From assembly GCA_021513695.1 (NCBI GenBank), contig CP084166.1:2496001-2560000 (forward strand): a stretch of 64,000 nt of DNA, in the 5' to 3' direction. Below the pieces are notes generated by a model. It saw nothing but the letters and a program-made list of their open reading frames with translations, had not been told where the DNA came from and did no database searches. This document shows, piece by piece, positions 1 through 17,919 of this stretch; the stretch's first letter is position 1; the number at the start of each line of letters is the position of its first letter. Source of the stretch: Candidatus Heimdallarchaeum aukensis. Its GTDB lineage: Archaea; Asgardarchaeota; Heimdallarchaeia; Heimdallarchaeales; Heimdallarchaeaceae. The position numbers and the translations under genes are program-made.

Positions 1-993
1 GAAGAAGCTGAGAAAAAAAGTGTTGAAACTGCAACTTATTTTGAAGAAAAACTTTTTCCCGGATTTTCTATGAAATTTGTTGAAAATATACTGGAAGAGT
101 TACGTCTACTAGGATTAGTTGATAATGGACATAAATTAACACAGAAAGGAATAGAAACAATAGAAGAAGAAGATGTTACTGTACCAGATGAAGGAACTTT
201 TGAAATACACGTTGTTAATGATGTTCTAATACCACAAGTTATTATTGATATCAAACCCCTTGAACCAAATTTATCAAGTGAACTAGCCATAAAAAGAAAG
301 CAAGGTAAACAATCAAAATTAGAGTTACCTGAATTAATCTTAAAAACAAAGGGAAGCACATTTAACATTTTTGACGACAAAAGGCGTAAAGTTACAATTC
401 ACGAAATACAAAAAGTAGGTTTAAAAAATAAAAATAATGAAAAATTAGACGTTGAATTAGCATTTGACGAAAAAAAATGGACACTCAAAGTTACTTTTAA
501 TAAAGAAAAGTTTGATCTGCACTTACCACAATGGTTTAATCAAACTGATGTTGTTGATAAAGTACTTACGTTATTCTCAGCAAAGGCTGATTTAAAACAA
601 TGGAGGTTACCGCAAGATCCGACTAAGCTAGAAAAAAAAGAAATTACTAGTTTTAATAAAAATTTCCAAAAAGATAATGTAAAACTTTCTTCATTAGGCA
701 AATTTAACATAGTTAGACTAATTGGCGTTCCCATTTTTCCGGATAGTCAAAAAAGTGCAGAAAAATGGTCAAAGAAATTATTTATTGAAAAAAAACTTTC
801 TAATTATATGACAACAAAAGATTTTGAGACTGAATGGCGACAAATGATCAAAGAATATAGTGGAAAGTTTGATAAGTTTGACCTACCACCTCCAAAAATT
901 ATGGATTTGTTAGATGAGATAACTTATGCTTCACAAAAATATTGGTTTCTGCAAGCACCATTAGATATGAATATTGAGGAGTTTGTCATATGA
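1..993 (+). CDS. hypothetical protein, probably 5'-partial (first in-window ATG at 70); first visible gene of a co-directional PLD / CARF-like / PIN-like cluster
   Basis: Frame 1 is open from nt 1 to the TGA at 991-993. That stop overlaps the next gene's start (ATGA at 990-993). 'LEELRLLGLVDNGHKLTQKG' looks like a winged-helix segment. No catalytic motif recognised. Confidence 0.55.
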   Translation, partial: EEAEKKSVETATYFEEKLFPGFSMKFVENILEELRLLGLVDNGHKLTQKGIETIEEEDVTVPDEGTFEIHVVNDVLIPQVIIDIKPLEPNLSSELAIKRKQGKQSKLELPELILKTKGSTFNIFDDKRRKVTIHEIQKVGLKNKNNEKLDVELAFDEKKWTLKVTFNKEKFDLHLPQWFNQTDVVDKVLTLFSAKADLKQWRLPQDPTKLEKKEITSFNKNFQKDNVKLSSLGKFNIVRLIGVPIFPDSQKSAEKWSKKLFIEKKLSNYMTTKDFETEWRQMIKEYSGKFDKFDLPPPKIMDLLDEITYASQKYWFLQAPLDMNIEEFVI

Positions 994-2522
994 TTAAACA
1001 AAAAGAACAGACTAACACTTATTTAAATGATAAAGAAGTTCCATCGCATTGGAGAAGTTTAATAAAAGAACAACCTGTTTTTAAAGATACCAACAAAATT
1101 ATTCCAATAGATAAAAAAAATAATCGATTTCGTACTCTTTTATTGAACTCTATAAAAAACGCAAAACAAACGATTATGATGTGTTCTTTTATTCTTAGTG
1201 ATCCTGATATTATTGATTCGTTATTAAAAGCTTCAGAAAGGGGGGTTAGGTGTTATCTATTATTTTCTACAGAAGCTCAATTGTCAAAGGAATATAAAAA
1301 AGAACAATCAGAGTTTGATGAAAAGACCCTAGAAGAACATAAGCAGATGTTAGATAGACTTGCTGGAAAAATTTTAGCTAGAACGTGTGATCATTTACAT
1401 GCTAAATTTTTGTTAGTCGATTATGGCAATCCAGAACAGAAGGGTTTCATTTCAACTGCGAATTTTACAAAAGAAGCGCTTACAAGAAATCAGGAACTAG
1501 GTGTAATTCTTAGTGATTCTGAAATAAATTTTCTATTTAATTTCTTTGTATTAGGTTTTTGGGTCGAAAGTAAAAATGAACTAGTAAGAAAAAATAATTG
1601 GGACGCTGTTAAATTAATTAATCTTAAACCACTAAAAGGAAATAATCAAATTTTTTATACTACTAGTTCCAACCAAACCCTAAAAAACGAATTAGAAAAA
1701 ATAATCGAGAATGAAACAAAAGAATTAGTGGTCTCAAGTTATGGGTTTGATGATGAACATCCTATTGTAGAGTTACTAATAAATAAAGCACAAAATATTA
1801 ACTTGACCATAATTACAAGACCAAGAGAAAAAAATCATAAAGTCATAGAAAAATTTACAAATGCTGGAGCAAAGGTTGTTGCTTATGATTATCTACATGC
1901 AAAGTTTATTCTTTCGCCTTCAACAAATCAAGGAATAATTATGACTGCAAATTTAGAGAGTAAAGGTCTAGAAACTGGTTATGAGGTTGGTATTAAAATT
2001 ACAAGAAAATATTTTGATGAACTGTTAACAATCTCAAGAGTCTGGATCGATTCTGCACCATTAATTTGGTATAATAAGACTTCTATTAAAAATTTGGAAC
2101 CTGGTACAATCAAAATTCCTAAAGGGAAGGATTATGATACCATAGAAATTATTGATGAGTTTATAGATGAGCAAAAGATAGAGCCACAAGATTTGCATAA
2201 AATGGAGAAGTTATTAAAAGAAGAACCTAAATTAAAGAAAAATCTGGATAACAAACTTCCAAAAAAGATTATTGTTAAGAGAACAATTATTCCTCCAGTA
2301 CTTCCAAAGGATGCAGTAAAAGTAGAGTCTAAGCAACTATTTACTAGTAAGAAAAGTAGAAGAAGAGAAGCTGACGTAAAAGATAAGGAAATAAAGTTTC
2401 CCTTTGAAACTTATCGTTTAAAGAATATATATTATGTTGTTGTTAAGTCATTAAAAGATTTAGAAAAACTTAAGGAATTCCCTAAATTTAGACAAACTGT
2501 ACGTATTGTAACTAAAGGCTAA
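990..2522 (+). CDS. PLD-superfamily protein with two HKD motifs (putative nuclease), Lys-rich C-terminal tail
   Basis: Two HxK(x4)D-type motifs: 'HLHAKFLLVDYG...GFISTANFT' and 'YLHAKFILSPSTNQGIIMTANLES'. Start overlaps the upstream stop by 4 nt. Confidence 0.8.
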   Translation: MIKQKEQTNTYLNDKEVPSHWRSLIKEQPVFKDTNKIIPIDKKNNRFRTLLLNSIKNAKQTIMMCSFILSDPDIIDSLLKASERGVRCYLLFSTEAQLSKEYKKEQSEFDEKTLEEHKQMLDRLAGKILARTCDHLHAKFLLVDYGNPEQKGFISTANFTKEALTRNQELGVILSDSEINFLFNFFVLGFWVESKNELVRKNNWDAVKLINLKPLKGNNQIFYTTSSNQTLKNELEKIIENETKELVVSSYGFDDEHPIVELLINKAQNINLTIITRPREKNHKVIEKFTNAGAKVVAYDYLHAKFILSPSTNQGIIMTANLESKGLETGYEVGIKITRKYFDELLTISRVWIDSAPLIWYNKTSIKNLEPGTIKIPKGKDYDTIEIIDEFIDEQKIEPQDLHKMEKLLKEEPKLKKNLDNKLPKKIIVKRTIIPPVLPKDAVKVESKQLFTSKKSRRREADVKDKEIKFPFETYRLKNIYYVVVKSLKDLEKLKEFPKFRQTVRIVTKG

Positions 2523-2556
2523 AACTGCAACTCAATAGATTTATAAATTGTAAAAT

Positions 2557-2560
2557 GGAG
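2557..2560 (+). promoter_or_regulatory. Shine-Dalgarno-like GGAG 8 nt upstream of the GTG start at 2569
   Basis: 'aaaatGGAGctaaaaaaGTG'. The nearby ATG at 2555 is in another frame and terminates after 14 codons. Confidence 0.3.
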
Positions 2561-2568
2561 CTAAAAAA

Positions 2569-3108
2569 GTGTCATACGATTTACTATATATTTCATTAAT
2601 GGGCTCATCAGAAAAAGCTGTAGCAAATTCAATATATGCTTCTTTAAAGAATTTAGTTAAAACTGATAAGAAAAATTGGGTTCTGGTGTTTGCAAAATCT
2701 AAATCAACACCAATAAATGGAGAAAGAATTGTTGAAATATTAGATGAGTATAAAAACACTTATACTAAAGCTAAATGGTACAACGCTCCTGTTGATTTTG
2801 ATGAGTTTGAAATTGAAGAATCCAACCTTCTTAAATCAATGGAACAGATAATAAATTATGTGGAAGAAACAGAAAAGAACTACTCTGACATCTTTATAGA
2901 TATAACACCAGGTAGAAAAGTAATGTCTGTTGCAGCCACTCTAGCCGCAATAAATCTCTGTAAATCATCAGAGTTCAATGATATCAAAATAATATACTAT
3001 TTGTTGAAAAATGTTGATGAACATAAAGATAAAGACGCACCTGAACTATATCCTGATGAGTACAAAGTGTCGAGTTGGTCTGTTAAAGATATAAGTAAAA
3101 GAATTTAG
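2569..3108 (+). CDS. small stand-alone CARF-like domain protein (possible cyclic-oligonucleotide sensor or ring-nuclease-like)
   Basis: N-terminal strand followed by polar residues ('LLYISLMGSSEKA'). 'DITPGRK' fits the CARF beta4 signature [DN]x[ST]xxx[RK] and resembles the DxTHG motif of Csx1-type proteins. At 179 aa it is a single-domain protein. GTG start. Confidence 0.45.
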   Translation: MSYDLLYISLMGSSEKAVANSIYASLKNLVKTDKKNWVLVFAKSKSTPINGERIVEILDEYKNTYTKAKWYNAPVDFDEFEIEESNLLKSMEQIINYVEETEKNYSDIFIDITPGRKVMSVAATLAAINLCKSSEFNDIKIIYYLLKNVDEHKDKDAPELYPDEYKVSSWSVKDISKRI

Positions 3109-3118
3109 AGGAAAAAGA

Positions 3119-4219
3119 ATGTCTGAAAAGCCAGTAATTTTGGAGTTTAGTGAGTTTTTTGAGAGTTATTTGTCAGAAAAACCTTTCATTATTCGAGGTT
3201 GGGATGAAGATGAGAATCAAGAATTTAGAATTGAATATAATGAAGGTATTACAACATTTGATAAAAATTTAAAACCCTTAGATATAAAGAATTATCTCTT
3301 TAATATTGGTATCTTCCCTTCTGATGAAAAATGGTGGAGAGAAAAAGCATTTAAAAAATTGGAAAAACGATATAATGAAGCAATTGAAGAAGAAGAGGTT
3401 CCTGCTCTGGGTTTAGATACAAATATAATAATAAATGGCGTTTTTATCAACAGGTTAAGAGGATTATTAAAAAGGAAACTTAAATGGGAAAATCCTCTCC
3501 TTCTACTGTCTCTTGCTTCATCTCACGAGCTTCACTATGGAGCAGAATCAAAATATAATGACTCGTTTTATAACAAATCAAAATTGGACAATATATGGGA
3601 ATTTATTTTATCACTAGATTCTCAAACACAGGAACTAGCTAAGACTGTTTTTGGCACCTATAAACCTATAGAAAACAAAAACATTTTGAGTTCTTTACAT
3701 TGTAAAAGAGGAAGAATAGGGCTTATAGGTTCATATAACTATTATAAACATAAGAAACTACCAAATACTCTCATCATAAAATCGATTCATCCTTATAATG
3801 TTGCAAAGTTTGATTCAGATGGGCATAAATATAAAGGAATTGATGCAATTTACGACACTTTAATTGCTTATGAGTTCACTCAGTTTATGACCTTTACAAA
3901 TACAAAAGTAACGATTTTAACAATGGATAATTCTTTAGCAAGTTTATTACAAAATGCATCAGTGGATGTAGTTTATATACCACCTCCAAGTAAATTTCAA
4001 TTACCAAAAGAAATAATTATCCCTCAAAGAAATTGTTCTATCCTTCTGAGAGAACTATTAGTAAGATCTCCTTTTATCGTTATTGAGGATGAAAATAAAA
4101 AAATAGTATTATCAATGATTTGGATAGGACAAACAGATGAAGAAAAAGCAAAAGGAGTAATTCATGGAGTAGTGAAAGAAAAAAATAAAACTAGATATTT
4201 ATTAATAAAGAGCCAATAA
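3119..4219 (+). CDS. PIN-like nuclease domain protein with uncharacterised ~95-aa N-terminal region
   Basis: 'ALGLDTNIIINGVF' is a typical first PIN acidic motif. Later candidate acidic positions are 'HYGAESKY', 'IDAIYDTLIAYE' and 'ILTMDNSLASLL' (T-x-D type last motif). GAGG lies upstream of the ATG. Confidence 0.45.
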   Translation: MSEKPVILEFSEFFESYLSEKPFIIRGWDEDENQEFRIEYNEGITTFDKNLKPLDIKNYLFNIGIFPSDEKWWREKAFKKLEKRYNEAIEEEEVPALGLDTNIIINGVFINRLRGLLKRKLKWENPLLLLSLASSHELHYGAESKYNDSFYNKSKLDNIWEFILSLDSQTQELAKTVFGTYKPIENKNILSSLHCKRGRIGLIGSYNYYKHKKLPNTLIIKSIHPYNVAKFDSDGHKYKGIDAIYDTLIAYEFTQFMTFTNTKVTILTMDNSLASLLQNASVDVVYIPPPSKFQLPKEIIIPQRNCSILLRELLVRSPFIVIEDENKKIVLSMIWIGQTDEEKAKGVIHGVVKEKNKTRYLLIKSQ

Positions 4220-4305: not shown

Positions 4306-5127
4306 GTGAAAAACACTTTTACTGTTATGGAAAATTGCTCTCTTTCTTCTAAAGATATGATTAAATTATACCTAGAAGTTGAAAAGGTTGCACGGTTTTA
4401 TGGAAAAATAAGACTTGTAGTCAATGATAAATTAAAGGCTGATCTTAAGGGAGAAGAGAAGACGAATTGTGGGCAGTTTCCTGCAAATAGTAAAAAGTTC
4501 CAAAAGTATTGGGGACTATTTAAAGAATTAAATATGAATACAAAGAAAATAAACAAATCCTATAAAACAATTAGTATTCCTAAAGAAGAATATAATAATT
4601 TAAAGAATAACAATAATAAATTAAAATATCAACGTTTTAATGTTCTTCGAGACTATTTTGCAATAAAAAGAATTCAAACTCTTCCACCAGAAAAAAAAGA
4701 ACAAATAATAATTACACTAGGATATAGAGATATCTTGCCACCAAACGTAGAAATGAAAACTTCAAATGAAAACCTAATCAAAATAATTGAAAATACAGAA
4801 GATTATTTAATTTATTTTAATTTGGAATCAGAGTTTGCGTTTCGTATGATATTTAGACATTTTTTGTGTTCGTTTTTGTTTAATGAACTTAACCTTTTTC
4901 CTGATAAAGAGATTCATATTTTAAAAAGAAATAGTTTGAAAAGCAAAAATAAGAATAATAAAGCTATTTCTAATCGTCTAATTATTTATAAGAGTGACAA
5001 GAAAAACTTTGAACTTATTTCAGAAACTACTTATCAAAACTTATTGAAACTTGTGGATGATACACAACTACACCAAAAACTTATGAAAATTCATTTAGAT
5101 TTTGAAAGAAATAAAGAAGGAATATAG
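4306..5127 (+). CDS. hypothetical Lys/Asn-rich protein (start uncertain: GTG 4306 or ATG 4327)
   Basis: Long ORF with no competing ORF on the other strand. No motif recognised. Confidence 0.4.
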   Translation: MKNTFTVMENCSLSSKDMIKLYLEVEKVARFYGKIRLVVNDKLKADLKGEEKTNCGQFPANSKKFQKYWGLFKELNMNTKKINKSYKTISIPKEEYNNLKNNNNKLKYQRFNVLRDYFAIKRIQTLPPEKKEQIIITLGYRDILPPNVEMKTSNENLIKIIENTEDYLIYFNLESEFAFRMIFRHFLCSFLFNELNLFPDKEIHILKRNSLKSKNKNNKAISNRLIIYKSDKKNFELISETTYQNLLKLVDDTQLHQKLMKIHLDFERNKEGI

Positions 5128-5172: not shown

Positions 5173-5949
5173 TTAATAATCATTAATGCAAATATCTTTG
5201 ATTTTAAAATTCTCTTTGCCTTCTTTAATTGGATACAAAAACCACCAACGCTTTGACAGCTCTTTTTCAGATATATTCTCTATGAGATTCGAAATAAAGT
5301 AAGAAAATGACAAGTTCTCTATTTTGTAGATAGAATACACATCATTAAGTTTGTCTTGCATTTCTCTTTCTAGCCATAATTTAATAAATAGATTTTCACC
5401 CATGCAAATATGATTTACAAACCCTTGACTATTTTTTAATGCTGCAATAATGTGTCCTTGAATTAATCCTTCATTTAAACTATTAGATCCACTATAAGCG
5501 AAAATTCCATTAAACTTGCTTTTTCCAATTATTTTTCCATTAAAAGACGCATTATCCATAATTTCTTTAATGTTGCTATTGTTTACTTTTGTTTTGACTT
5601 CAATGATACCTTTAACATTATCTGGTGTTGTAATTACAAAATCTCCTTCTACAAATAACGCTGGATATGTATTATCGTATAGAATTATATCTATTTGTTT
5701 TGATATTTCAGTTCCGAAATTCTCACAATTATGTTTATAATTAATTATGAATCCTGTTCCTATGCTTATGTTAGAAGGCAAAAAACGTTTAATAACATTT
5801 TTTAATATAGCTTCCTTAAATCTTCCTTCTTCTCCCCAGTGTCTATTTCCTATAAGATTTCTTACTCTATTTTGAACAATTTTCAACTCTCTTGTAATAG
5901 AACTATGAAATTCTTTAGGGTTTATATCCCATCTATTCCTCTGATTCAT
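5173..5949 (-). CDS. PD-(D/E)xK-type nuclease-like protein (resembles DUF6602 family)
   Basis: 'SKQIDIILYD...' followed ~30 aa later by 'VKGIIEVKTK' gives a D...E-x-K arrangement. Family assignment is from memory of the consensus, not a search. Confidence 0.5.
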   Translation of the reverse strand: MNQRNRWDINPKEFHSSITRELKIVQNRVRNLIGNRHWGEEGRFKEAILKNVIKRFLPSNISIGTGFIINYKHNCENFGTEISKQIDIILYDNTYPALFVEGDFVITTPDNVKGIIEVKTKVNNSNIKEIMDNASFNGKIIGKSKFNGIFAYSGSNSLNEGLIQGHIIAALKNSQGFVNHICMGENLFIKLWLEREMQDKLNDVYSIYKIENLSFSYFISNLIENISEKELSKRWWFLYPIKEGKENFKIKDICINDY

Positions 5950-6346: not shown

Positions 6347-7109
6347 GGTAGTGTCTAGTTTTTTTCCGACAAAAATATTTGTGGGGACTCTAATAGTAAG
6401 ATATGAAAACACAAAAACTATCTGCTCTTTTTAAGAGATGCAGAGTCCCCAAAAAAATAATAATAAAAGCTATTTATGAATATATTGGTTCAAAGAATGG
6501 TTTGAGGACAGTAGCATGGAAGAATGGTTTAACGCATCAAACATTATTGTATTGGGTAAAGAAGTTCAGGCTCTTTAGGGAAAGTTTACATAGAGTTGTA
6601 GCAGAGAGAGGGGGAATACCAGAGATTATAGTAGTAGATGAAACAGAGATTAGGACCTCTCAAGGCTCAATATATCTGTGGTTCGCGTTAGATCCTTACA
6701 ACAAGACTTTACTGGGTTTTAGTATTACTAAAGGACGGAGTAATCTTGAATGTTTACTAACTTTCCGTTATTGGCTCAAATGTTGGGGTTTTAAGCCTCG
6801 TATTGTCGTTACAGATGCAGGGGTATGGTATCCTGTCTTACTTCGTCTAGGTATCAAAATCTCCGTTATCAAAGGTGGTTTACGCTCCTATATTGAACGT
6901 TTTAATGCTACTCTTAAGAGTTATCGTTGGTTTCATTCTATTCTCCACTGCACTTGTCCTATCCGTGCCGTCTATGGCTCTACTCATCTTTCTGGTTTTC
7001 TTACTCTCTTTATGCTCCATTATAATTTCGTTCGTCCTCATCAGAGCTTGGGACATCCTCCCCTTAGTTCCTTTTTACCTAGGAGGTGGTATAAAAACTA
7101 GACACTACC
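6347..7109 (+). mobile_element. IS6-like insertion sequence, copy A (763 bp), with its own flanking direct repeat
   Basis: Terminal inverted repeats: GGTAGTGTCTAGTTTTT (6347-6363) and its reverse complement (7093-7109). A 9-bp direct repeat ATATAAAGC abuts each end (6338-6346 and 7110-7118). Single DDE ORF inside. Confidence 0.85.
6403..7101 (+). CDS. DDE transposase (IS6-like; family tentative)
   Basis: Candidate D-D-E: 'VVDETEI', 'VVTDAGVWY', 'YIERFNATLK' (K at E+7). C-terminal 'YNFVRPHQSLG' is integrase-core-like. About 93% identical to the copy at 14619-15317. Confidence 0.85.
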   Translation: MKTQKLSALFKRCRVPKKIIIKAIYEYIGSKNGLRTVAWKNGLTHQTLLYWVKKFRLFRESLHRVVAERGGIPEIIVVDETEIRTSQGSIYLWFALDPYNKTLLGFSITKGRSNLECLLTFRYWLKCWGFKPRIVVTDAGVWYPVLLRLGIKISVIKGGLRSYIERFNATLKSYRWFHSILHCTCPIRAVYGSTHLSGFLTLFMLHYNFVRPHQSLGHPPLSSFLPRRWYKN

Positions 7110-7408: not shown

Positions 7409-9922
7409 TTATTTATCTCTATTTATGAAATTCATTAAAACCTTTAAGCAAGAATATTCTTCTAATTTACCAATATAAACATTCTTGAATTCACCATTGA
7501 TTTTTTCTCTTAAAATTAAATGTTTCTGTTTATTTATTATCAGGCGCCCACCAGTTGGTTTAAATTTTCTAAAAATAAACCACAAACTTTGAGCTTCTGG
7601 AAAAGTAATTTTTTCTGCTAATTCTTTTGGTTTGTTCAATAATAATTTTCCATTTGATTTAAAACTCAGAGTAATTATTGCTTTAGTATCTCCTAGGTAA
7701 AAATCTCCAATCTCTAGTTTTTGCAAATCTTCTTCTTCAATTTCCTCTTTTTTCTTATATTCCTTTTCTAGCGGCTTTTCTGATATAAACTCTCCAAATT
7801 CTGACCACAAACGATATTCAATATTGCTTTCACCAATCACCTCATTCCAATTTAATTTATAGAATATTTTTTCATCTGTTGTGTTTTTTACATAAATATT
7901 GAACAATGTTGTGTGAGTTTTTCCTTTTGCTTTTCGGAGTATTCTTCCCAAGGATTGAATTCTTTGTATTTTTGAAGACGATGATGCCATTATAATTCCT
8001 ATATTTGTTGAAGGGATATCTACTCCTTCAATTAGTGCCTTAGCTGATAATAGAACTCTGGTTATTCCTCTTCTATACAAAGTTAAACCAATCCTATTAA
8101 GTGATGAAGGAAATCCTGAATGATAAATGCTTACATAGGGAGAATCTAATTCAACAAAAACTCTATTTATCTCCCCTATAAGTTCATGAAATAAAATAAC
8201 TCTATCGTTTCTTGAAATTGTATATAAAGGACTAGTTTCATCGCTATATTCTTGAATATTTTTTGAAATCACTCTATTTAATATTTTTAATGTGAGTTTT
8301 TTTCTATTTTCTGACTGATATACTAAGTCCTTCCTTTCCTTTATTTTTTTGAAGTATTGGTTAATAAGTGGATCTTTTTTTTCTTTACTCATTTTCTGTA
8401 GAACGGGATAAATATTTATCATGTCAAGTGATAGTTGAGGATATTTGTAATTTAATGCATCAATAATTTTACTTATTTCTTTAGTTAAATTTTCATATTT
8501 TCTTTTTTCATGATTTGTAAGGACTACTCCATAGTTGTAAATATTGTATTTTGGTATTATTCCATCATCAAATGCATTTTTGTAAGTATAATTTCCTATT
8601 ATTTCTCCTAATTCTCGAATAATAACTTCATTAAAAGCATCATCCGATTCTCTTTCTGGTGTAGCTGATAGTCCTAAAGTGTAAGATCTCTTAGCTTTAT
8701 ATATCTCACGAAACTTCGGGGCGCCAGATTTGTGACACTCATCTACAATTAAAAGATTTGCTTGTAATTTTTCTGTAACTTTTCCTATTAGATTGTTTTC
8801 TATTGCAGAATTAATGACAAAAATGAAAATTTCTTTTTGATCAAAACTGTCTGAATAATCACCACCTTTTAATGCAATTTTTGACGGTTCAACGTGTAGT
8901 TTTTCTATAAGATTATCATACCATTGTTCTAGAAGTACTATTGTTGGGACAACTATAGTAACTGTCAAATTTGGTTCAATTTTCTTCATTTCTTGAATAA
9001 TTGCCATGGCTAAGTGTGTTTTCCCAGCTCCAGTAACTACTTTAGCAATACCTCTTTTCTGTTTCATCCATCGTTCAAGGAATTTTGATTGCCATGAATA
9101 AAGAGAATCTTGCAATTGCCATTCTAGTCCTTTAGTTTTTTTTATCTCTTTTTTCATGTCAATAATTGGGTTTTTCATGAATTCATCAAAATCGTTTTGA
9201 TGTTTAAGTATTTGATATCTCCACTTTCGATTAGGGAGATGGGCTTTAATTGTTAAGTGATATAGTTTTCTCAATTCTCTTATTGGTACATCTCTTCTAT
9301 TTAGTTTCTGTAATCGAGTAAGTAATTCTTTACTTAAATTGTGGGCGTAGGATAAAATTTCTTTTCTATCTCTCTCTCCTAAACTAATAGTTCCTTGATA
9401 GTAGTGGATCACTCCACATAAATCTAATACTTTCAAAATTTCTGACAAATATCTTCTGATTGTGTCTACATTCTCAATTTCATAATCATTTGCTTTAAGT
9501 AAGGTAATAAACTTAGAAAGTTTCAATCCTGAATTGTTTTTGCAAACGATATCATAAACATCTGGTAAAAAGTAAGCCCATTCTAAATTTCGACAAAGGC
9601 ATTTTAAAATATAGTTTTTATATTTAATTTTTCCGTCTAAATATTGGACAGAAAGATCAGAGAGAAAATAAAATTCATCTAAATATAGCATTTTATATGT
9701 AACTAAGCTGCCCAAATATCTTTTTGCCGTAGTGACTTTTATCTTTCCTTCTAATGTGTTACATAGTAGTAGCTTTGCTTCTTCTTCTGTAACTTTTTTA
9801 TCACGCAATTGCTTTAGAAAATTCTTCATTTTTTCTTCTGACTCAAGAATTGGATAAATTAGAGTCATATGGGGAACTTTCTTTTTTGTATCAATCAAAC
9901 CATCTGTCATAATTATCATCAA
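7409..9922 (-). CDS. SF2 (DEAD/DEAH, ResIII/XPB-like) helicase with ~270-aa unknown N-terminal region and a C-terminal copy of the module shared with the two upstream genes
   Basis: Motif I 'VVTGAGKTHLA', II 'LIVDECHKSG', III 'LGLSATPE', VI 'IQSLGRILRKAKGK'. The C-terminal 102 aa (nt 7412-7717) carry 'IGDFY...FKPTGGRLIINK...VYIGKL'. Start is ambiguous (several Met within the first 19 codons). Confidence 0.85.
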   Translation of the reverse strand: MMIIMTDGLIDTKKKVPHMTLIYPILESEEKMKNFLKQLRDKKVTEEEAKLLLCNTLEGKIKVTTAKRYLGSLVTYKMLYLDEFYFLSDLSVQYLDGKIKYKNYILKCLCRNLEWAYFLPDVYDIVCKNNSGLKLSKFITLLKANDYEIENVDTIRRYLSEILKVLDLCGVIHYYQGTISLGERDRKEILSYAHNLSKELLTRLQKLNRRDVPIRELRKLYHLTIKAHLPNRKWRYQILKHQNDFDEFMKNPIIDMKKEIKKTKGLEWQLQDSLYSWQSKFLERWMKQKRGIAKVVTGAGKTHLAMAIIQEMKKIEPNLTVTIVVPTIVLLEQWYDNLIEKLHVEPSKIALKGGDYSDSFDQKEIFIFVINSAIENNLIGKVTEKLQANLLIVDECHKSGAPKFREIYKAKRSYTLGLSATPERESDDAFNEVIIRELGEIIGNYTYKNAFDDGIIPKYNIYNYGVVLTNHEKRKYENLTKEISKIIDALNYKYPQLSLDMINIYPVLQKMSKEKKDPLINQYFKKIKERKDLVYQSENRKKLTLKILNRVISKNIQEYSDETSPLYTISRNDRVILFHELIGEINRVFVELDSPYVSIYHSGFPSSLNRIGLTLYRRGITRVLLSAKALIEGVDIPSTNIGIIMASSSSKIQRIQSLGRILRKAKGKTHTTLFNIYVKNTTDEKIFYKLNWNEVIGESNIEYRLWSEFGEFISEKPLEKEYKKKEEIEEEDLQKLEIGDFYLGDTKAIITLSFKSNGKLLLNKPKELAEKITFPEAQSLWFIFRKFKPTGGRLIINKQKHLILREKINGEFKNVYIGKLEEYSCLKVLMNFINRDK

Positions 9923-10712
9923 TTGAGTAGATTATTTTGGGCTCTCTTGGTCTGTCAATTTGTATTTGATGCTCATATTTTCCCAGATAGATAGGATACC
10001 AACTTATTTCTTTATCTTTGTTTCGACGATCTTTTTGAGGTTTTGTATACTCATTTAACAAATTTTTTTGGAGATTAGAAAAATCACGCCATTGTTGATC
10101 AATTATATCGCTTTTTAATACATCTTTTTTTATTAGATACTTCATTCTATCTTGAGTAATGGCTGTCCACATGTGCCCATATTCATTTATCCAAATAGAA
10201 CCTGCATTAAGCCAATTATATGAATTCTGCATTCTTCCTCTTAATTGGCATATCCTTTTCAGAAAACTGTTATTAAAATTTTGTACATAATAAGTTATTG
10301 AAGTACTTTTTGTATTACTTTGAATTTTTTCTAGAAAATAAATTCGTCCTTCTCTAGAAAATTTATACTTTGAACCGTGCTTTCTTAAAAATCCTGTCCA
10401 TAAAGAGCCAATTTCTAGATTTCTGGGGTTAATCTCAATATCTTCAAAAACTAACTCCTTATTTAATTGTCCAACATAAACTGGCAACCATTCATTCTTC
10501 TTTTTTCTAATATAAGTAATAATCTCTCTTTCTTCATTAATTATTATTCGACCACTATTCTCCTTTCTGACATCAATTATGTCTTCTATAATCTTTGAGA
10601 CGTCAGTGGTTGTTGGAATTTTTATATCTCTATCTTTGTAGTAAATGCCATCAATATTATAAACATATTTTGACCCTCGAACATGCTTGTCATAAATATC
10701 TCCTTTTTTCAT
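9891..10712 (-). CDS. hypothetical protein made of two copies of the shared module
   Basis: Copy 1: 'KKGDIY..GSKYVYNIDG..ENSGRIIINEEREIIT..PVYVGQL'. Copy 2: 'IGSLW..GSKYKFSREG..AGSIWINEYGHMWT..YPIYLGKY'. ATGA overlap with the upstream gene at 10709-10712. Confidence 0.6.
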   Translation of the reverse strand: MKKGDIYDKHVRGSKYVYNIDGIYYKDRDIKIPTTTDVSKIIEDIIDVRKENSGRIIINEEREIITYIRKKKNEWLPVYVGQLNKELVFEDIEINPRNLEIGSLWTGFLRKHGSKYKFSREGRIYFLEKIQSNTKSTSITYYVQNFNNSFLKRICQLRGRMQNSYNWLNAGSIWINEYGHMWTAITQDRMKYLIKKDVLKSDIIDQQWRDFSNLQKNLLNEYTKPQKDRRNKDKEISWYPIYLGKYEHQIQIDRPREPKIIYSIDDNYDRWFD

Positions 10713-12403
10713 TTTAATACACCAATTCTCGATAAAAATTCATTATCATCTTCTTCTGACCATTCTTTCTCTAAATCATAAGGAGGTTTGAATTTTATAT
10801 TTCCTGAAAATTTACCTAAATAAATTGGAATCATTCCGTCTCTATCGGTTTTTTTCCTAATATCAATCAAATTTTTTTCAAAATTTGATAACTTTGATAT
10901 TTGGTTTAATATTCTTCTAGGATAAGGAGCAGAGTACATTAATGTCAATATTGCTCCATTCTCGTTTATTTTTATTCTTCCACCTTGTGGTTTAAATTGT
11001 AAAACTGTTTCCACTATCTTTTCATGCCCTTCAACAGCATAAAATTTCCTGCCAGATACTTTTATGAATAATTGTCGATTAGCATTAATTCCAAAAGTGG
11101 TTCCATCATATATACTTGGCCATAAATCTCCTTTTTTTAACTTTAAAGGTTTCCAGGAAATTTTATTTTCTTTGAAAATTATTTCTCCAGTTAACATTGT
11201 AACAAATATCTGTTTGTATTCGCCATTTACTTCTTTTTTAGTGATTATTTCTCCGCTTTCAGTGATACGAAAACTACCACCTAGTGGTCTACAATTAAGA
11301 AGTTTGTTTTTTACTCTATTATCAGAAAATTCTATCTCAAGTTTTGTGTCTGTACCACTCAAAGACCACCAAAAACGACCATCAGAATTAAAATGATATT
11401 TAGTTCCACGATAGATACTGTGGTAGGTTTCATTCTCTTTGGAGTCCAAAGGAGCTAACCAAAAATCAGAGCGATAAAGATATTGATCATGAGATTTTGT
11501 GGTGTTTATTTCTTCTCGTTTTTTTAATAGTTCTTTCCAGTTTTCTTGCAAAGATATTTTGCCGTCTTTTACTGTATTCACTAGTTTAAGTTCTTTTAAT
11601 GTTTCTAGCAATCTTAATCCGTTTTCTTCACCAATTAAAATCAAAATTTCATTTAATTTTAACTCCAGTTTATTATTGAATAAGAGCAAAATTAATTTTT
11701 CTAGTTCATATGGTGATGGATCAATAAGATCAATTTCATTGATTATATTTTGTAAAGTAAATTTGTTATCATCTTTTAAATTATCTATTTCAAATAGTTC
11801 ATCAATACTGTACTCAACTACGCCAAATTTTTCAATAATTAAAGATAGCTCTGATTGTTTAAAAACAAATTCATTTGATGAAGTATTAGATAAAAATTGA
11901 GTGAGATTAATTTCATTTAGAACATTAAACCATAGATGTTTATCTCTTTCAATTTGATTGGTATCGTAAGAACTATCTCCTTTAAAACAAACAATAGAAC
12001 TAATATGCCTAACTGGTTGTTGTATAAAGCGGGCTGAAATAGATTTTAATACTTCATTAATGTAGTTCATTAATTCATATCTCTGTGATCTAACTTGCCT
12101 GAAAATGTTTTTTCCTCCATTAATAGGCAATTTTTTATTTTGGTCAGTTACAACATACCATTCACTGTTTTCGGATCCAATTACTTTTCCTTCATAATTT
12201 TTGACTTCAACACTAATAATAGCTTTATCTTTGAGGATAATTAAGTCATACTGGTGTTTTCCAATAATATAATCTAAAATTATGTGAATTGTTTGCTTAC
12301 TATTTTGAAATTCATCATAGATATTTTTTAATATCTTAGTAATTTGTTTTTTTTCATTTTCTTCAAAATCTAAAAAACCTGAATAATATGCCTTCACAGT
12401 CAT
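10709..12403 (-). CDS. NERD-domain protein with central helical/wHTH-like region and two C-terminal copies of the shared module
   Basis: NERD-like 'YDLIILKDKAIISVEVKNYEGKVIGSENSEWYV...NIFRQVRSQRYEL' (aa ~50-112). Module copies at aa ~308-412 ('GTKYHFNSDG..RPLGGSFRITESGEIIT') and ~413-540 ('KKGDLW..KPQGGRIKINENGAILT..IPIYLGKF'). Confidence 0.7.
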   Translation of the reverse strand: MTVKAYYSGFLDFEENEKKQITKILKNIYDEFQNSKQTIHIILDYIIGKHQYDLIILKDKAIISVEVKNYEGKVIGSENSEWYVVTDQNKKLPINGGKNIFRQVRSQRYELMNYINEVLKSISARFIQQPVRHISSIVCFKGDSSYDTNQIERDKHLWFNVLNEINLTQFLSNTSSNEFVFKQSELSLIIEKFGVVEYSIDELFEIDNLKDDNKFTLQNIINEIDLIDPSPYELEKLILLLFNNKLELKLNEILILIGEENGLRLLETLKELKLVNTVKDGKISLQENWKELLKKREEINTTKSHDQYLYRSDFWLAPLDSKENETYHSIYRGTKYHFNSDGRFWWSLSGTDTKLEIEFSDNRVKNKLLNCRPLGGSFRITESGEIITKKEVNGEYKQIFVTMLTGEIIFKENKISWKPLKLKKGDLWPSIYDGTTFGINANRQLFIKVSGRKFYAVEGHEKIVETVLQFKPQGGRIKINENGAILTLMYSAPYPRRILNQISKLSNFEKNLIDIRKKTDRDGMIPIYLGKFSGNIKFKPPYDLEKEWSEEDDNEFLSRIGVLK

Positions 12404-12800: not shown

Positions 12801-13994
12801 ATGGATGTTCTTCTTGCAATAGAATCTGTTCTTTTTGATGAGAAGAAAACTAGTACATACAAATTTGCTTTGGTAACTGCAATTATTGATTATGTCATAG
12901 AAAATCCAAACGAGTTTCCAGAAAACGGTTTTCACTATATACCAATTATTTATCTAGCAAAAAGGTGGTTATATTATTATTATCCATTGATGGTTTATGG
13001 GGAGAGAGGAGTTAGACAAGGATCAACACAGATATCTTTGCATCGATTTATTAGAGAATTTGTTGAAAAGCAAAGGGATAAGTCAATAAATTATTTTGAA
13101 CCTGAAGCAATTCTTAAAATTAAAGAAAGAATAGAAGATAATGAAATATTGGATAAGGAACTGATTTCTTTACTAATAAAGATAAGAAGAGTTATAATAA
13201 GCCAACCTTTACAATTCATTAAAATTGCCAGTAATAGTTTTATTCAAGAAGAGTTAGTAGAAGGAATAAAATTTAAAGATGAAACCTTTTCTCTCTTTGG
13301 ACTATATAACAGTTTACTAAAATATAATGAAAAAGAAAACTATCAAAGTATTAGATCGAAATCAACTAATTGGGAAGGAGAAAGAGGAGAACAAACTTGG
13401 TTGGAATTGGAAGCTGAAGAGACATTATTTATACAAATGGGACATTATACTTACAAAGAATTAGCAGAATCAAGATTTTTTATAAAAGATGCAATAATAA
13501 AAAGATGGTTAGAATATTCAGTAGAAAAGTATCTGCAAGCAGATGCTAAAGCAATTTATGCATTATTTTACGGACTAAAACTACATGAAAAAAGACTGGA
13601 AAGAGAATCAGGAAAAATACAGAAGATGAGAAAAATAGCCTTAACAGTTTTTAAACCGATGAAATGTATTTACTGTGGAAAAGAAATAAGAAAATTTGAA
13701 CTAGATCACCTAATACCTTGGTCAAAGTTTCCAGTTGATAGATTCTGGAATCTCTTTCCAGCATGCGAAAGTTGCAATAGAAAAAAATCAGATAAGATCA
13801 TAAGTATAGAAAGAAATATTCAAAGTAAAATAGCTGAATATTTAAAAGCGTGGCTGGAATATTTTATAGAAAATAAGGAAGAATTGGCAGTCCTAGGAGG
13901 AAAAGAAACTCACAATCTAAATATGGAAAATATAGAATCTTCAATTCATCTGTTATTAGAACAAATAAAAGAAATAAATCAGAATTTAATTTAG
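12801..13994 (+). CDS. HNH endonuclease with ~290-aa uncharacterised N-terminal region
   Basis: C-terminal 'CIYCGKEIRKFELDHLIPWSKFPVDRFWNLFPACESCNRKKSDK' has the CxxC...DH...N...CxxCN pattern. The N-terminus ('TSTYKFALVTAIIDYV') is unassigned. Confidence 0.85.
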   Translation: MDVLLAIESVLFDEKKTSTYKFALVTAIIDYVIENPNEFPENGFHYIPIIYLAKRWLYYYYPLMVYGERGVRQGSTQISLHRFIREFVEKQRDKSINYFEPEAILKIKERIEDNEILDKELISLLIKIRRVIISQPLQFIKIASNSFIQEELVEGIKFKDETFSLFGLYNSLLKYNEKENYQSIRSKSTNWEGERGEQTWLELEAEETLFIQMGHYTYKELAESRFFIKDAIIKRWLEYSVEKYLQADAKAIYALFYGLKLHEKRLERESGKIQKMRKIALTVFKPMKCIYCGKEIRKFELDHLIPWSKFPVDRFWNLFPACESCNRKKSDKIISIERNIQSKIAEYLKAWLEYFIENKEELAVLGGKETHNLNMENIESSIHLLLEQIKEINQNLI

Positions 13995-14610: not shown

Positions 14611-15372
14611 GGTAGTGTCTAGTTTTTATACCACCTCCTAGGCAAAAAGGAACTAAGGGGAGGATGTCCCAAGCTCTGATGAGGACGAACGAAATTATAA
14701 TAGAGCATAAAGAGTGTAAGGAAACCAGAAAGATGGGTAGAGCCATAGACGGCACGGATAGAACATGTGCAGTGGAGAATAGAATGAAACCAACGATAGC
14801 TCTTAAGGGTAGCATTAAAACGTTCAATATAGGAGCGTAAACCACCTTTGATAACGGAGATTTTAATACCGAGACGACGTAATACAGGATACCATACCCC
14901 TGCATCTGTAACGACAATACGAGGCTTAGAACCCCAACATTTGAACCAATAACGAAAAGTTAGTAAACATTCAAGATTACTCCGTCCTTTAGTAATACTA
15001 AAACCCAGTAAAGTCTTGTTGTAAGGATCTAACGCGAACCACATGTACATTGAGCCTTGAGAGGTCTTAATCTCTGTTTCATCAACTACTATAATCTCTG
15101 GTATTCCCCCTCTCTCTGCTACAACTCTATGTAAACTTTCCCTAAAGAGCCTGAATTTCTTTACCCAATACCATAGTGCCTGGTGTGTTAAACCATTCTT
15201 CCATGCTACTGTCCTCAAACCATTCTTTGAACCGATATATTCATAAATAGCTCTTATGATTATTTTCTTGGGGATTCTGCTCCCTTTAAAAAGGGAGTAT
15301 ATTCTTAGTTTGTTCATATTTTCACATTAGAATCCCCAATAATATTTTTGTCGGGAGAAACTAGACACCACC
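14611..15372 (-). mobile_element. IS6-like insertion sequence, copy B (762 bp), inverted relative to copy A, with its own flanking direct repeat
   Basis: IRs: GGTAGTGTCTAGTTTTT at 14611-14627, and ...AAACTAGACACCACC ending at 15372 (one mismatch). A 10-bp direct repeat ATAGAAAACC sits at 14601-14610 and 15373-15382. Confidence 0.85.
14619..15317 (-). CDS. DDE transposase (IS6-like), copy B
   Basis: 232 aa, collinear with the 6403-7101 product. Differences cluster in the first 13 aa, with scattered substitutions elsewhere. Confidence 0.85.
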   Translation of the reverse strand: MNKLRIYSLFKGSRIPKKIIIRAIYEYIGSKNGLRTVAWKNGLTHQALWYWVKKFRLFRESLHRVVAERGGIPEIIVVDETEIKTSQGSMYMWFALDPYNKTLLGFSITKGRSNLECLLTFRYWFKCWGSKPRIVVTDAGVWYPVLRRLGIKISVIKGGLRSYIERFNATLKSYRWFHSILHCTCSIRAVYGSTHLSGFLTLFMLYYNFVRPHQSLGHPPLSSFLPRRWYKN

Positions 15373-15423: not shown

Positions 15424-16245
15424 ATGAAAAAAGAGAAAGAGGACGCAATTAAAAAATTTGCGAATATTTTTTCAATGACAGCGGGAAATAGAAGTATATA
15501 TAAACACCTGGATTTTCTATTTAAAGATGATTATAATGGTTCAACAAAGAGAGATCAAATTATCTATTTATTAAAGAAATATTATCCTGATAATAAAAAA
15601 CTTATGTACATCTTAAGAGAGATTTTTGCAGTTCATAATGTTTCTTTTGTTAAACGTAATATTGATAAAATCAATGAATGCCTTATAAATTTTAATCTAT
15701 ATGTTGATGAAAATTTAAAACTTAATGTAATTGATTCTGTGATTATGTGTCTTAATGAGGCTGAATTCATAGTCAATTCTCAATTAGACAATATTCCGAA
15801 AAACTTACCCCAAATGCCAGAAGATATCCTGGAAAAAGGAAAAAATATGGCTTATGCATATTTACTTTTATATATCCTTGAAAATTATTTGAGGTTATTC
15901 ATAAGCCAAGCTAATAAGAATAAAAAATTAGAATACAGCGCTGGACAGAAAAAGAAAATAGAAAATAGAAAAAATCAAGAAGAAAAAAACACGTATCACG
16001 CTGTAAGAGGTACAAATGATCTCTTTTATCTTGATCTTAGTGATTTATGTTCTATAATTGTAAATAATTGGAATAGTTTTATTAAATATTTTCCAAATCA
16101 AAATTTCATCAAAACTAGGCTTGAGGAATTAGTAATAACACGGAATCACGTTGCTCATAATAGTATCATTTCTGACAATGATTTCAGGAGATTAATAACA
16201 TATTTTGAAGATATCCTTAATCAAATAGCCTTTTACTTTCATTAA
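15424..16245 (+). CDS. HEPN-domain protein (Swt1-like R-N-x-x-A-H motif) with unknown N-terminal region
   Basis: 'LEELVITRNHVAHNSIISDNDFRRL' near the C-terminus matches the Rx4H HEPN signature. Confidence 0.5.
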   Translation: MKKEKEDAIKKFANIFSMTAGNRSIYKHLDFLFKDDYNGSTKRDQIIYLLKKYYPDNKKLMYILREIFAVHNVSFVKRNIDKINECLINFNLYVDENLKLNVIDSVIMCLNEAEFIVNSQLDNIPKNLPQMPEDILEKGKNMAYAYLLLYILENYLRLFISQANKNKKLEYSAGQKKKIENRKNQEEKNTYHAVRGTNDLFYLDLSDLCSIIVNNWNSFIKYFPNQNFIKTRLEELVITRNHVAHNSIISDNDFRRLITYFEDILNQIAFYFH

Positions 16246-16317
16246 GATCTGTGTATGTTGTTTGATATATGTGTAGTCTAAGTTTAGATATTGAACAGAC
16301 TTCTTTTTGATTATTCT

Positions 16318-17919
16318 TTATTTCTCAAGTTCTTCTTTTATAGATGGAGTTACCCCCCCATGTTTCATTCTACGTTTCTTAATATTAACTAAAAGTGTAA
16401 AAGGAACAGATAATCCTGTAACCATAGCTTCACCAGTAGCTAGCCCTTTAATTGCTTCGAAATCTTCTTTTGTCATATGTTCTGCAATGTTTTGTACATA
16501 ATTTTGGTCTTTTGGATTCATCATTCTTAGTATAAAATGGGTGTTACATTGGCTTAAAATGTCTGCATCAACTTTAGAAGGTCTTTGTGATACAATACAC
16601 AATCCCATACCAAATTTTCTTCCTTCAGAAGCAACTCTTGCAATTATCTGTTTAGAAGCAGAAGGGCTTGTTCCTGGAGGAATGAAATTATGTGCTTCTT
16701 CAATAATTGTTAAAAATGGCTTTATTTTTGATTCATAACTTGTTTTCCTCAAATCAAAGAGTTTTCTTAGAATTAATCCTACTAAAGCTTGTTGATCAAA
16801 AGCTTCAATTCCTCCTAAGTCTAATATTGATATTTGCCCTTTCTTTACAAATTCTGAAACATCAGTTCCTTTTCCAAAAGTAAAATATGGTCTTTTCAAT
16901 AGTGCTCTCATTTTATTTTCAAGTGCTCTTCTTGTTCCTTTGTGTTCTATTCTTTCTATTGACTTTTCTATTAATTCCTCAATGCTGGTTGGAGGATTTC
17001 CATCAAGTGCTTCCATATGTATTTCATCCCAACCTCGATCTAATGATGCACTCTGAGCCTCTGAAATACCATAGTACTGTGAAAGTAAAGTCTTGATTTG
17101 CCATGTCTCTAACTCTGCTGGATGAAACTTAACACTAATTGTTACTCTTTTTCTTCCATGAACATCTTCAAACTTCTTTTCAAGTAAATAATTAAATTCT
17201 CCAGGAACAAATGTTAGTACTGACTTTGAGATTTCACGTGCTTCTCTTGAATCTTCATTAGGAATAAGTGTTGAAGAATATTCGCTATGAGGATCAATAA
17301 GAATGATGGGTAGTTTGAGATTATCTATTAAATATAATTCTTCGAGAATAACACCAACAGTATAACTTTTTCCTGCTCCTGTCATTGCTAAAACTGAAAA
17401 ATGATGTGTTACAAGTTTTTCATAATCTATATATGCTGGAACATTATGATTATCTCTCAAATTACCAATAATAATTGTTCTATCCTTAATGAAAAAAGAA
17501 GAAACAAATTCATCATCGGCCATATAAATAATTGTACCAGGATTAAGAGGGATTCGAGGTCTGACAAAGGCATTTCCTATTTTTCTTCCAATTATTAAAA
17601 CTGAAAATCCCATCATTCCAGCAATTTCAGAAGCTAATCCTAAATGTTCAATAGTCATAGAACTTGCCTCTAAGTCTTTTGTTCTAAGTTTTGGCATCAT
17701 ATTTTCATCTAATAGTAATCTGTTTTTTGTCCAAACAGATATAACTCTCCCTAGTAAAAATTCTTGTTTTTTATTTTCATCTAGATATTGTATTTTTACT
17801 AGTCTACCAATACCAATACTTGGCGAGTCTTTCAGAGCAATTGCTTCTACCAAGTATGGTGTTGTTTTTCCATAAACTATTCCAACAGGTATGTTTTTTT
17901 TCTCTCTATTTTGTTCCAT
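16318..17919 (-). CDS. herA: HerA-type (DUF87/FtsK-HerA superfamily) ATPase
   Basis: Walker A 'LAMTGAGKSYT', Walker B 'LTIIEEAHNFIP', 'GMGLCIVSQRPSKVD'. The N-terminal barrel-like region is 'PVGIVYGKTTPYLVEAIA'. Lies 9 nt downstream of the nurA-like gene. Confidence 0.85.
   Translation of the reverse strand: MEQNREKKNIPVGIVYGKTTPYLVEAIALKDSPSIGIGRLVKIQYLDENKKQEFLLGRVISVWTKNRLLLDENMMPKLRTKDLEASSMTIEHLGLASEIAGMMGFSVLIIGRKIGNAFVRPRIPLNPGTIIYMADDEFVSSFFIKDRTIIIGNLRDNHNVPAYIDYEKLVTHHFSVLAMTGAGKSYTVGVILEELYLIDNLKLPIILIDPHSEYSSTLIPNEDSREAREISKSVLTFVPGEFNYLLEKKFEDVHGRKRVTISVKFHPAELETWQIKTLLSQYYGISEAQSASLDRGWDEIHMEALDGNPPTSIEELIEKSIERIEHKGTRRALENKMRALLKRPYFTFGKGTDVSEFVKKGQISILDLGGIEAFDQQALVGLILRKLFDLRKTSYESKIKPFLTIIEEAHNFIPPGTSPSASKQIIARVASEGRKFGMGLCIVSQRPSKVDADILSQCNTHFILRMMNPKDQNYVQNIAEHMTKEDFEAIKGLATGEAMVTGLSVPFTLLVNIKKRRMKHGGVTPSIKEELEK

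Follow-up and report, generated by a model that had tools for sequence, protein, structure and literature searches.

The window analysed here is a 64,000-nucleotide (nt) stretch of the genome of Candidatus Heimdallarchaeum aukensis, an Asgard archaeon (contig CP084166.1, positions 2,496,001 to 2,560,000). As delimited in the list of open reading frames (ORFs), its positions 1-4219 hold the 3' part of a gene designated g1, a PLD nuclease gene with two HxK motifs, and the genes for a 179-amino acid (aa) CARF protein and a 366-aa PIN-fold protein (g4). These genes are the 3' half of a single composite defence operon that also encodes a viperin and a Mokosh-like helicase and is faced by a divergent gene for a second, regulator-type CARF protein. 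Within it, the CARF and PIN-like genes form a conserved, translationally coupled two-gene module that is rare and occurs only in Asgard archaea. The reading that we favour, with moderate confidence, is that this pair is the cyclic-oligoadenylate-responsive arm of a composite defence cassette, namely a split CARF-PIN effector that would answer a signal made in trans.

Closely spaced ORFs on the forward strand lie at 70-993, 990-2522, 2569-3108, 3119-4219 and 4306-5127, and a convergent ORF lies at 5173-5949. Over positions 1-4219 the intergenic distances are, in order, a 4-nt overlap, 46 nt and 10 nt. A preliminary description of this DNA had recognised four co-directional, closely spaced genes and had supposed that their operon might begin upstream of the window; the ORFs are as described, except that the first is cut by the window edge, and the operon does start upstream. 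Logan contig L001, in which the 400 nt compared agree fully with the window (window nt 1 being L001 nt 7433), extends the locus by 7.4 kb and contains the operon start. There the ORF at 70-993 is seen to be part of the C-terminal 330 codons (1-993, forward strand, K9W45_11170) of the 366-aa g1, a gene that starts 108 nt before the window (L001 7325-8425). The full order is a divergent Csa3-like regulator gene with CARF and winged helix-turn-helix (wHTH) domains, the viperin AsgVip01, an MkoA-like Upf1-type helicase of superfamily 1 (SF1), g1, the PLD nuclease, the CARF protein, the PIN-like protein and g5, with gaps of 6 nt, 4 nt and a 4-nt overlap along the upstream string. The preliminary description had also allowed that an upstream cyclase gene might have been missed, but the added DNA holds the viperin, the helicase and the second CARF protein and not a cyclase. 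The G+C content of the window is approximately 29%, and a search of the window for tRNAs and Rfam RNAs gave no match.

By profile comparison, the 179-aa protein (2569-3108, forward strand), which is identical to Ca. H. aukensis protein K9W45_11180, is a member of the CARF superfamily. It hits 57 PADLOC CARF models, the best being CARF_m1--CARF (3e-10) and the second the fused architecture CARF_m1--CARF_PIN (7e-9), while Pfam CARF models match below their cut-offs (about 1e-4). The first CARF motif reads MGSS (aa 11-14, with G12-S13-S14 at nt 2602-2610) and the second DITPGRKVMS (aa 111-120, with D111-I-T-P-G-R116-K117 at nt 2899-2919). The stretches G12-S13-S14 and D111-I-T-P-G-R-K117 are reported as invariant in the family, and residues A17, A19, N20, S44, D111, T113, G115, R116, K117, M119, Y143, Y144, E159 and D163 are invariant in seven homologues. 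The best solved-structure matches of the family profile (A5) are the Crn1 ring nucleases Sso2081 (8e-8) and Sis0455 (4.6e-7), followed by Csm6 and Card1, and the profile also touches residues 78-98 of SiRe_0806, a Sulfolobus CARF-PIN protein whose structure is available with cyclic tetra-adenylate (cA4). The preliminary description, which had pointed to LYISLMGSS and DITPGRK, was thus right to call this protein a CARF rather than some other Rossmann protein. In the alignment to Sis0455, T10 and S11 correspond to S13 and S14 of the CARF protein, D75 to E84, and R105 and K106 to R116 and K117; in Sis0455 these five residues bind cA4, D75 being the Asp by which the Arg is positioned, and R105 and K106 are required for its cleavage (PMC9638899).

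Ring-nuclease activity of this protein is therefore possible as far as its residues go, and an alternative reading builds on it: the CARF protein would be a stand-alone, Crn1-like ring nuclease acting as a cA4 off-switch, and the PIN-like protein an independent nuclease, for example a toxin, that is not regulated by it. The best sequence matches of the family among solved structures are Crn1 enzymes, its members all keep the equivalents of the cA4-cleaving Ser/Thr, Arg and Lys, the protein has no domain other than the CARF, and the pairs of Thorarchaeota are located among toxin-antitoxin genes, all of which agree with such a role. Set against these points, the protein scores 22.7 bits with the NCBIfam Crn1 model (NF040581, cas_Crn1), far from reaching its curated cut-off of 125, and the second-best PADLOC model is a fused CARF-PIN architecture. 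The gene arrangements described below bear on this alternative more directly.

The PIN-like protein (g4, 3119-4219, forward strand) has no match in Pfam, PADLOC or NCBIfam, including the curated PIN models, and its one weak profile match is to the PIN domain of MJ1533 (0.003). Word-indexed homologue searches with g4, the CARF protein and g1 returned essentially only the proteins themselves, and the g4 family was found just by an exhaustive HMMER search, which recovered 23 relatives among 1.84 billion representative proteins. These are approximately 340-390 aa long and match over their full length, and those that carry an organism name are all from Asgard archaea (Promethearchaeota, Hodarchaeales and Thorarchaeota). 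An AlphaFold2 model built with the family alignment reached a pLDDT of 89.9 and a pTM of 0.90 (a single-sequence model, with a pLDDT of 35, was discarded). It has a small N-terminal alpha/beta domain (aa 1-90), a PIN core with a helical insert (aa 94-300) and a C-terminal beta-rich domain. The acidic tetrad D100 (nt 3416-3418), E137, D246 and D270 (nt 3926-3928) is invariant in an alignment of 19 full-length members, as is the motif G198-R-x-G-x-x-G204 of the helical insert. The best Foldseek match of the model, which is also its best multi-domain structural match, is PDB entry 9jxx, 'SiRe_0806 in complex with cA4' (E 9e-5); a search of a viral fold library gave nothing significant, and a literature search for SiRe_0806 found no paper. 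From the model and this match, g4 is therefore best described as a divergent PIN nuclease with extra N- and C-terminal domains that is most like the nuclease half of a cA4-binding CARF-PIN protein. The preliminary description had assigned it to the PIN type from LGLDTNIIING and TMDNSL, and the modelled PIN fold and the invariant tetrad bear out that assignment. With 23 representatives, g4 defines a small new protein family.

The organisation of these two genes elsewhere is highly consistent. A CARF homologue (170-285 aa, with a D-[IT]-T-x-G-R-K motif) stands immediately upstream of the PIN-like homologue in 11 of the 12 informative contexts (L005, L010, L011, L013/14, L016, L017, L021, L024, L026, L027/28 and this window). 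The two genes are separate in every homologous locus; they lie 10 nt apart in H. aukensis and commonly overlap by 1-4 nt across the paired contexts. A few of these pairs are found beside genes related to signalling. For example, the pair in L021 abuts a type III locus with Cas10, five RAMP genes and a CARF-HEPN Csx1, in which Cas10 (16164-18932, reverse strand) keeps an intact HD motif and carries AGDD rather than GGDD as its cyclase motif. In L010, genes for a CBASS-type oligonucleotide cyclase (3e-31) and an E1-E2 Cap2-like protein (1.5e-14) come after the closest g4 homologue (P0004, 35% identity), and in L013 genes for ThiF, JAB and Cas1-Cas2 lie within 5 kb of the pair. The pairing in 11 of 12 contexts, the hit to a fused CARF_PIN profile and the match of the g4 model to SiRe_0806 together support the view that the pair is a split form of the cA4-binding CARF-PIN proteins. 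A split sensor and effector, with CARF acting in trans on PIN, is also what the preliminary description had proposed, and both the adjacency of the genes and the existence of fused relatives speak for it.

This near-obligate pairing is what the ring-nuclease alternative leaves unexplained, and it is weakened for that reason. Almost every CARF gene of this kind has a PIN-like gene next to it on the downstream side, and the two often overlap by 1-4 nt; the pairing persists in L016, where there is no other cyclic-oligoadenylate effector to switch off. We consider it unlikely that the CARF protein is only an off-switch and the PIN-like protein is independent of it, although no other alternative weighed here has a better claim.

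The 46-nt spacer between the PLD and CARF genes (2523-2568) contains TTTATAAA at 2541-2548, with the GTG start codon of the CARF gene following approximately 21 nt later. It is a candidate internal archaeal TATA box that would give CARF and PIN a near-leaderless transcript of their own, although such an element is a weak signal in a genome of 29% G+C.

The PLD nuclease (510 aa, 990-2522, forward strand) belongs to a different set of genes. Its match to Pfam PLDc_2 (2.6e-27) comprises two stretches, and among PADLOC models it matches DrmC (3e-27) and MkoB (2.8e-9). The first motif reads HAKFLLVD (aa 137-144, nt 1398-1421, with H137, K139 and D144) and the second HAKFILSP (aa 303-310, nt 1896-1919, with H303 and K305), the Asp being absent from the latter; the two-HKD protein of the preliminary description is thus recovered, with a second motif reduced to HxK. 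Orthologues of the PLD gene lie directly after g1 in L017, L024 and L026, and the gene is always found with an MkoA-like helicase and g1, overlapping or abutting the latter. The helicase, g1 and the PLD nuclease constitute a Mokosh-like set, in which the PLD protein is the nuclease and the MkoB-like partner of the helicase. DrmC is the best hit of the PLD protein in both PADLOC and NCBIfam, but the NCBIfam score is 70.9 bits, under the cut-off of 133. DISARM would call for DrmA/DrmB (DUF1998), a methylase and the other core genes, and a DISARM reading was dropped because the neighbourhood contains no Drm partner.

The preliminary description had also offered the PLD protein as an effector controlled by the CARF protein, and a version of this idea, in which CARF would activate the PLD nuclease in trans, whether or not the PIN-like protein is also involved, draws on the adjacency and shared direction of the PLD and CARF genes in H. 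aukensis and L026. Synteny speaks against it, and we reject the proposal that CARF controls PLD, to which we leave only a very small probability, because the two genes lie on opposite strands in L017 and L024 and because the CARF-PIN pair occurs without any PLD gene in at least seven contexts (L005, L010, L011, L013, L016, L021 and L027). The constant position of the PLD gene, after the helicase and overlapping or abutting g1, likewise ties it to its Mokosh-like partners.

The upstream half of the operon consists of genes with recognisable defence relatives. The helicase (928 aa, SF1) matches PADLOC MkoA (5.4e-89) over profile positions 460-835 of 1112; the Pfam domains on record for it are AAA_11, AAA_12, AAA_19 and AAA_30, and no serine/threonine kinase domain was detected among these recorded domains or in the partial-profile PADLOC match. 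Between helicase and PLD, g1 has orthologues in the same position in L017 (35% identity), L024 (31%) and L026 (22%, E 3e-14), and no match in Pfam, PADLOC, NCBIfam or PDB; in its full-length form it may contain a wHTH at about aa 57-92, and it represents a new conserved Mokosh-associated gene. The viperin (292 aa) scores 286 bits with NCBIfam NF038283 against a cut-off of 180 (E 2.4e-85), has the radical-SAM CxxxCxxC motif in the form CMNNCSFC, and is residue for residue the same as AsgVip01. AsgVip01 is reported to protect Escherichia coli against T7 when working alone (Shomar et al., bioRxiv 10.1101/2023.09.13.557418). The divergent gene upstream of it encodes a 215-aa, Csa3-like protein of the CARF3 class with a wHTH (PADLOC 3.4e-55; NCBIfam Csa3 55 bits).

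The spacer between regulator and viperin genes measures 106 bp in H. aukensis (L001 3543-3648) and contains just short AT-rich palindromes. The corresponding spacers of L017 (8573-8697) and L024 (4595-4703) contain the palindromes TATATTCGCTA-N7-TAGCGAATATA and TTATATTAAAA-N7-TTTTAATATAA, respectively, which are putative operators.

A search with the PLD alignment gave one genome locus and three metagenome loci. Besides H. aukensis, three loci combine orthologues of the helicase, g1 and PLD with the CARF-PIN pair and a CARF-HTH regulator; two other PLD hits were on contigs too short or too truncated to be informative. In L017/L022, from a Promethearchaeota metagenome-assembled genome, an HTH-CARF protein of class m5, the CARF protein and the PIN-like protein are encoded divergently from the viperin, MkoA, g1 and PLD genes. 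The metagenomic locus L024 has the same arrangement with a Csa3-like regulator, whereas in L026, also metagenomic, a CARF3-wHTH regulator, MkoA, g1, PLD, CARF and PIN-like genes are all colinear and there is no viperin. Hence a CARF-HTH regulator and the CARF-PIN pair are present in four of four informative Mokosh-like loci and the viperin in three of them. From one of the four loci to another, the MkoA proteins are 32-50% identical, the PLD proteins 28-47% and the g1 proteins 20-35%.

Such recurrence can be set against the simplest alternative, that three independent systems (viperin, Mokosh-like set and CARF-PIN pair) were made neighbours by the clustering of genes in defence islands, with no functional coupling. 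The window is a dense defence island, AsgVip01 is active by itself in E. coli and the CARF-PIN pair occurs in many other contexts, as would be expected of independent systems. In addition, a neighbour-joining tree, which is crude and has no support values, does not unite the PIN-like proteins encoded at the Mokosh-linked loci; the H. aukensis protein pairs with the CBASS-linked protein of L010, and that of L017 with the type III-linked protein of L021. This unsupported tree hints at exchange of the module between contexts. Nevertheless, the same six gene families recur in all four informative loci, a small sample, at identities of 20-50% and in both colinear and divergent arrangements, the genes within each unit are tightly packed (4-nt overlaps and spacers of 6-46 nt), and a CARF-HTH regulator is promoter-side each time. 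We therefore regard independent neighbours as an improbable explanation of the locus.

In L017, two further proteins (473 aa at 348-1769, reverse strand, and 260 aa at 11429-12211, forward strand) have C-terminal R-x4-H motifs (RNILMH and RNRAQH) and a HEPN-like look, which makes them possible extra RNase effectors. The counterpart position in H. aukensis is held by the unrelated g5 (266-273 aa, 4306-5127, forward strand), an ORF that is also called in L001. It has no family match in Pfam, PADLOC or NCBIfam, and none of the other three composite loci encodes a clear homologue, so that g5 is an uncertain member of the system.

The favoured reading of the pair as a split CARF-PIN effector requires a source of signal outside the operon. 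The preliminary description had seen no CRISPR-Cas or cyclase gene, and this holds more widely: across the 64 kb of the window and the 7.4 kb that precede it, searches for Cas10, CD-NTase and SMODS genes, for other cas genes and for CRISPR arrays were all negative. Of the possibilities that it had raised, an orphan ancillary module answering a signal made elsewhere is the best fit, with sister pairs standing beside Cas10 in L021 and beside a CBASS cyclase in L010. According to PMC8813620, several CRISPR-Cas loci are present in H. aukensis and in its sister genome; the Csa3-type regulator Csa3a binds cA4 (PMC8699464).

Alternatively, no cyclase would be needed if the CARF proteins of the cassette sensed a ligand produced in cis, either RNA fragments with 2',3'-cyclic phosphates or a viperin-derived 3'-deoxy-3',4'-didehydro (ddh) nucleotide. 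In this self-contained pathway, attack on viral RNA by the helicase and nucleases would release the fragments, and the signal would activate the PIN nuclease as well as transcription. Against this reading, cleavage by PLD and PIN nucleases normally yields 3'-OH ends and not cyclic phosphates, and L026 has no viperin. The CARF protein moreover keeps the canonical cA4-contact residues of Crn1, and sister pairs adjoin a Cas10 locus or a CBASS cyclase. In its favour, each of the four composite loci encodes two CARF proteins and no cyclase in the locus DNA examined, the CARF domain of RtcR senses tRNA halves with cyclic phosphates (PMC7790460), and linear A4>P can activate CARF effectors (PMC8284326). 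On balance a cyclase-free cassette seems to us improbable. Were it true, it would tie CARF signalling to viperin, a Upf1/MOV10-like helicase and a Zucchini-like PLD protein, all relatives of parts of eukaryotic innate immunity.

We would like to emphasize that several observations weigh against a split CARF-PIN effector that answers a signal in trans. The absence of a cyclase gene from the window and its 7.4-kb extension is the first of these, and tblastn searches with the L010 cyclase and with the L021 Cas10 and Csx1, which have low sensitivity, found nothing in any composite locus. One PIN-like homologue, in L019, has no CARF neighbour and is the sole exception among the 12 contexts, and the composite loci are few (n=4). 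The fused CARF-PIN protein ST0035 is reported to show only weak cA4 binding and no induced RNase activity (PMC6546367). Lastly, we infer a physical complex of the CARF and PIN-like proteins solely from the coupling of their genes and the existence of fused relatives.

With these reservations, the following mechanism can be proposed for the split effector. A cyclase encoded elsewhere in the genome, either Cas10 of a type III system or a CD-NTase (CBASS), would supply a cyclic oligoadenylate in trans. A dimer of the CARF protein would bind and thereby sense it, the ligand most likely being cA4 in view of the conserved contact residues. Through a protein complex arranged like VapB-VapC, ligand-bound CARF would gate the PIN-like nuclease, with RNA cleavage and arrest of the infected cell as the likely outcome. 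Since the contact and catalytic residues of Crn1 are kept, the CARF protein may also cleave its own ligand, and perhaps limit its own activity in this manner. The Csa3-like regulator at the operon promoter would sense the same signal, so that the viperin and Mokosh-like genes would be brought under the same alarm.

Nearly all known CARF sensors are domains fused into effectors associated with type III CRISPR or CBASS, and viperin and Mokosh are each regarded as innate systems in their own right. If the proposed mechanism is true, the alarm signal of one system would recruit innate effectors of different chemistry that are encoded elsewhere, namely a chain-terminator synthase, an RNA helicase with its nuclease and a PIN RNase, which would be a concrete case of cross-talk between immune systems. 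The whole operon is directly testable, AsgVip01 having already been cloned and found active. Each component has known counterparts in fused CARF-PIN proteins, Crn1, Mokosh, viperins and Csa3; what appears to be new is the split CARF/PIN pair and a CARF-type regulator stably linked to a Mokosh-like helicase and PLD nuclease, usually with a viperin. Because viperin and Mokosh are listed separately in the searchable literature on defence in Asgard and other archaea, which does not mention a CARF linkage, both the split CARF/PIN-like family and its embedding in a cassette of regulator, Mokosh-like set and viperin appear to be undescribed so far.

The remainder of the window is a defence island with PbeA-like, NERD, HNH, HEPN, HerA-NurA, GmrSD, type III restriction-modification and PDC-S01 genes and copies of an insertion sequence (IS). 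Directly beyond g5, the convergent gene at 5173-5949 (reverse strand, 258 aa) encodes a DUF6602 / PD-(D/E)xK nuclease (Pfam DUF6602 1.5e-19; PADLOC PD_DExK 1e-23 and NucC 1e-10; PDB Serratia NucC 7zgv 3e-4). NucC is a nuclease activated by cyclic tri-adenylate (cA3), and the resemblance to it is weak but significant. The gene is not conserved elsewhere among the composite loci; it may encode another effector that responds to cyclic oligonucleotides, which would fit a cluster of signal-responsive effectors.

Two IS copies of approximately 766 bp (6347-7109 and 14611-15372) are 93% identical and inverted, and each encodes a 232-aa rve-type transposase. Between them lie a PbeA-like helicase (7409-9922), a 273-aa protein of no known type, a NERD/PDC-M16A-like protein (10709-12403) and an HNH protein (12801-13994), so that the bracketed genes resemble a composite transposon carrying defence genes. 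A HEPN_Swt1/PDC-M34B-like gene (15424-16245) then adjoins HerA (16318-17919), NurA (17929-19053), an unassigned 248-aa protein and a 1224-aa AAA ATPase, and this string (15424-23458) looks like a HerA-NurA-based defence candidate. Farther on are a DpdA/TGT-like gene (25283-26515), GmrSD (27123-29267), and a UvrD-PD-(D/E)xK helicase-nuclease with a 1151-aa partner that is AddAB-like (30500-37667). A type III restriction-modification system follows, with a methyltransferase that is seemingly split between 41649-42479 (the N-terminal part of MTase_III, 2e-86) and 43013-45574. The island region 25283-47033 also contains a DUF3800 gene, and PDC-S01 lies at 47353-48540.

Among known systems, the closest counterparts of the pair are the fused CARF-PIN proteins of type III systems (SiRe_0806, PDB 9jxw/9jxx; ST0035; Msed_1167), for which the reference set in PADLOC comprises 'CARF_m1--CARF_PIN' and 'CARF+PIN' Csx1-family clusters. 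In both cases a CARF sensor is joined by a PIN nuclease, the 179-aa protein matching the CARF part of the fused profile and the g4 model the cA4-bound SiRe_0806, and the sister pair of L021 stands beside a Cas10 locus as a type III ancillary module would. In H. aukensis, however, sensor and nuclease are two polypeptides, g4 carries additional domains at both termini as well as a GRxGxxG insert, and the pair lies inside a viperin/Mokosh-like operon with no cas genes nearby. Likewise, in contrast to CBASS, no cyclase is adjacent in H. aukensis, such adjacency being seen in the sister locus L010. The CARF protein resembles Crn1 (Sso2081 and Sis0455; CARF_m13) in consisting of a CARF domain alone, in its size of approximately 180 aa and in its G-[ST]-[ST] and D-I-T-x-G-R-K-x-M-S motifs, but it is obligately paired with a PIN-like gene and comes from Asgard archaea, whereas Crn1 comes from Crenarchaeota. 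The pair is also reminiscent of VapBC, in which a small upstream gene is translationally coupled to a PIN nuclease gene, and some pairs are found among toxin-antitoxin loci; here the upstream partner is a CARF protein, predicted to bind a ligand, rather than a DNA-binding antitoxin, and the PIN protein is approximately 360 aa long with three domains.

The rest of the cassette can be compared in the same manner. Like type I Mokosh (Millman et al. 2022), it has a Upf1-like, COG1112-type SF1 helicase and a separate PLD nuclease gene, yet the helicase is without a detectable serine/threonine kinase domain, a conserved extra gene (g1) stands between the two, the PLD protein scores higher against DrmC models, and CARF proteins and usually a viperin accompany the set. 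The divergent 215-aa protein is, like the Csa3 CARF-wHTH regulators, of the CARF3 class with a wHTH, but the promoter next to it is that of a viperin/Mokosh-like operon and not of CRISPR adaptation genes, and in L017 its place is held by an unrelated HTH-CARF protein of class CARF_m5. Finally, prokaryotic viperins (pVips) have been described as solitary or paired with nucleotide kinases, whereas here a viperin heads an operon of helicase, PLD, CARF and PIN-like genes.

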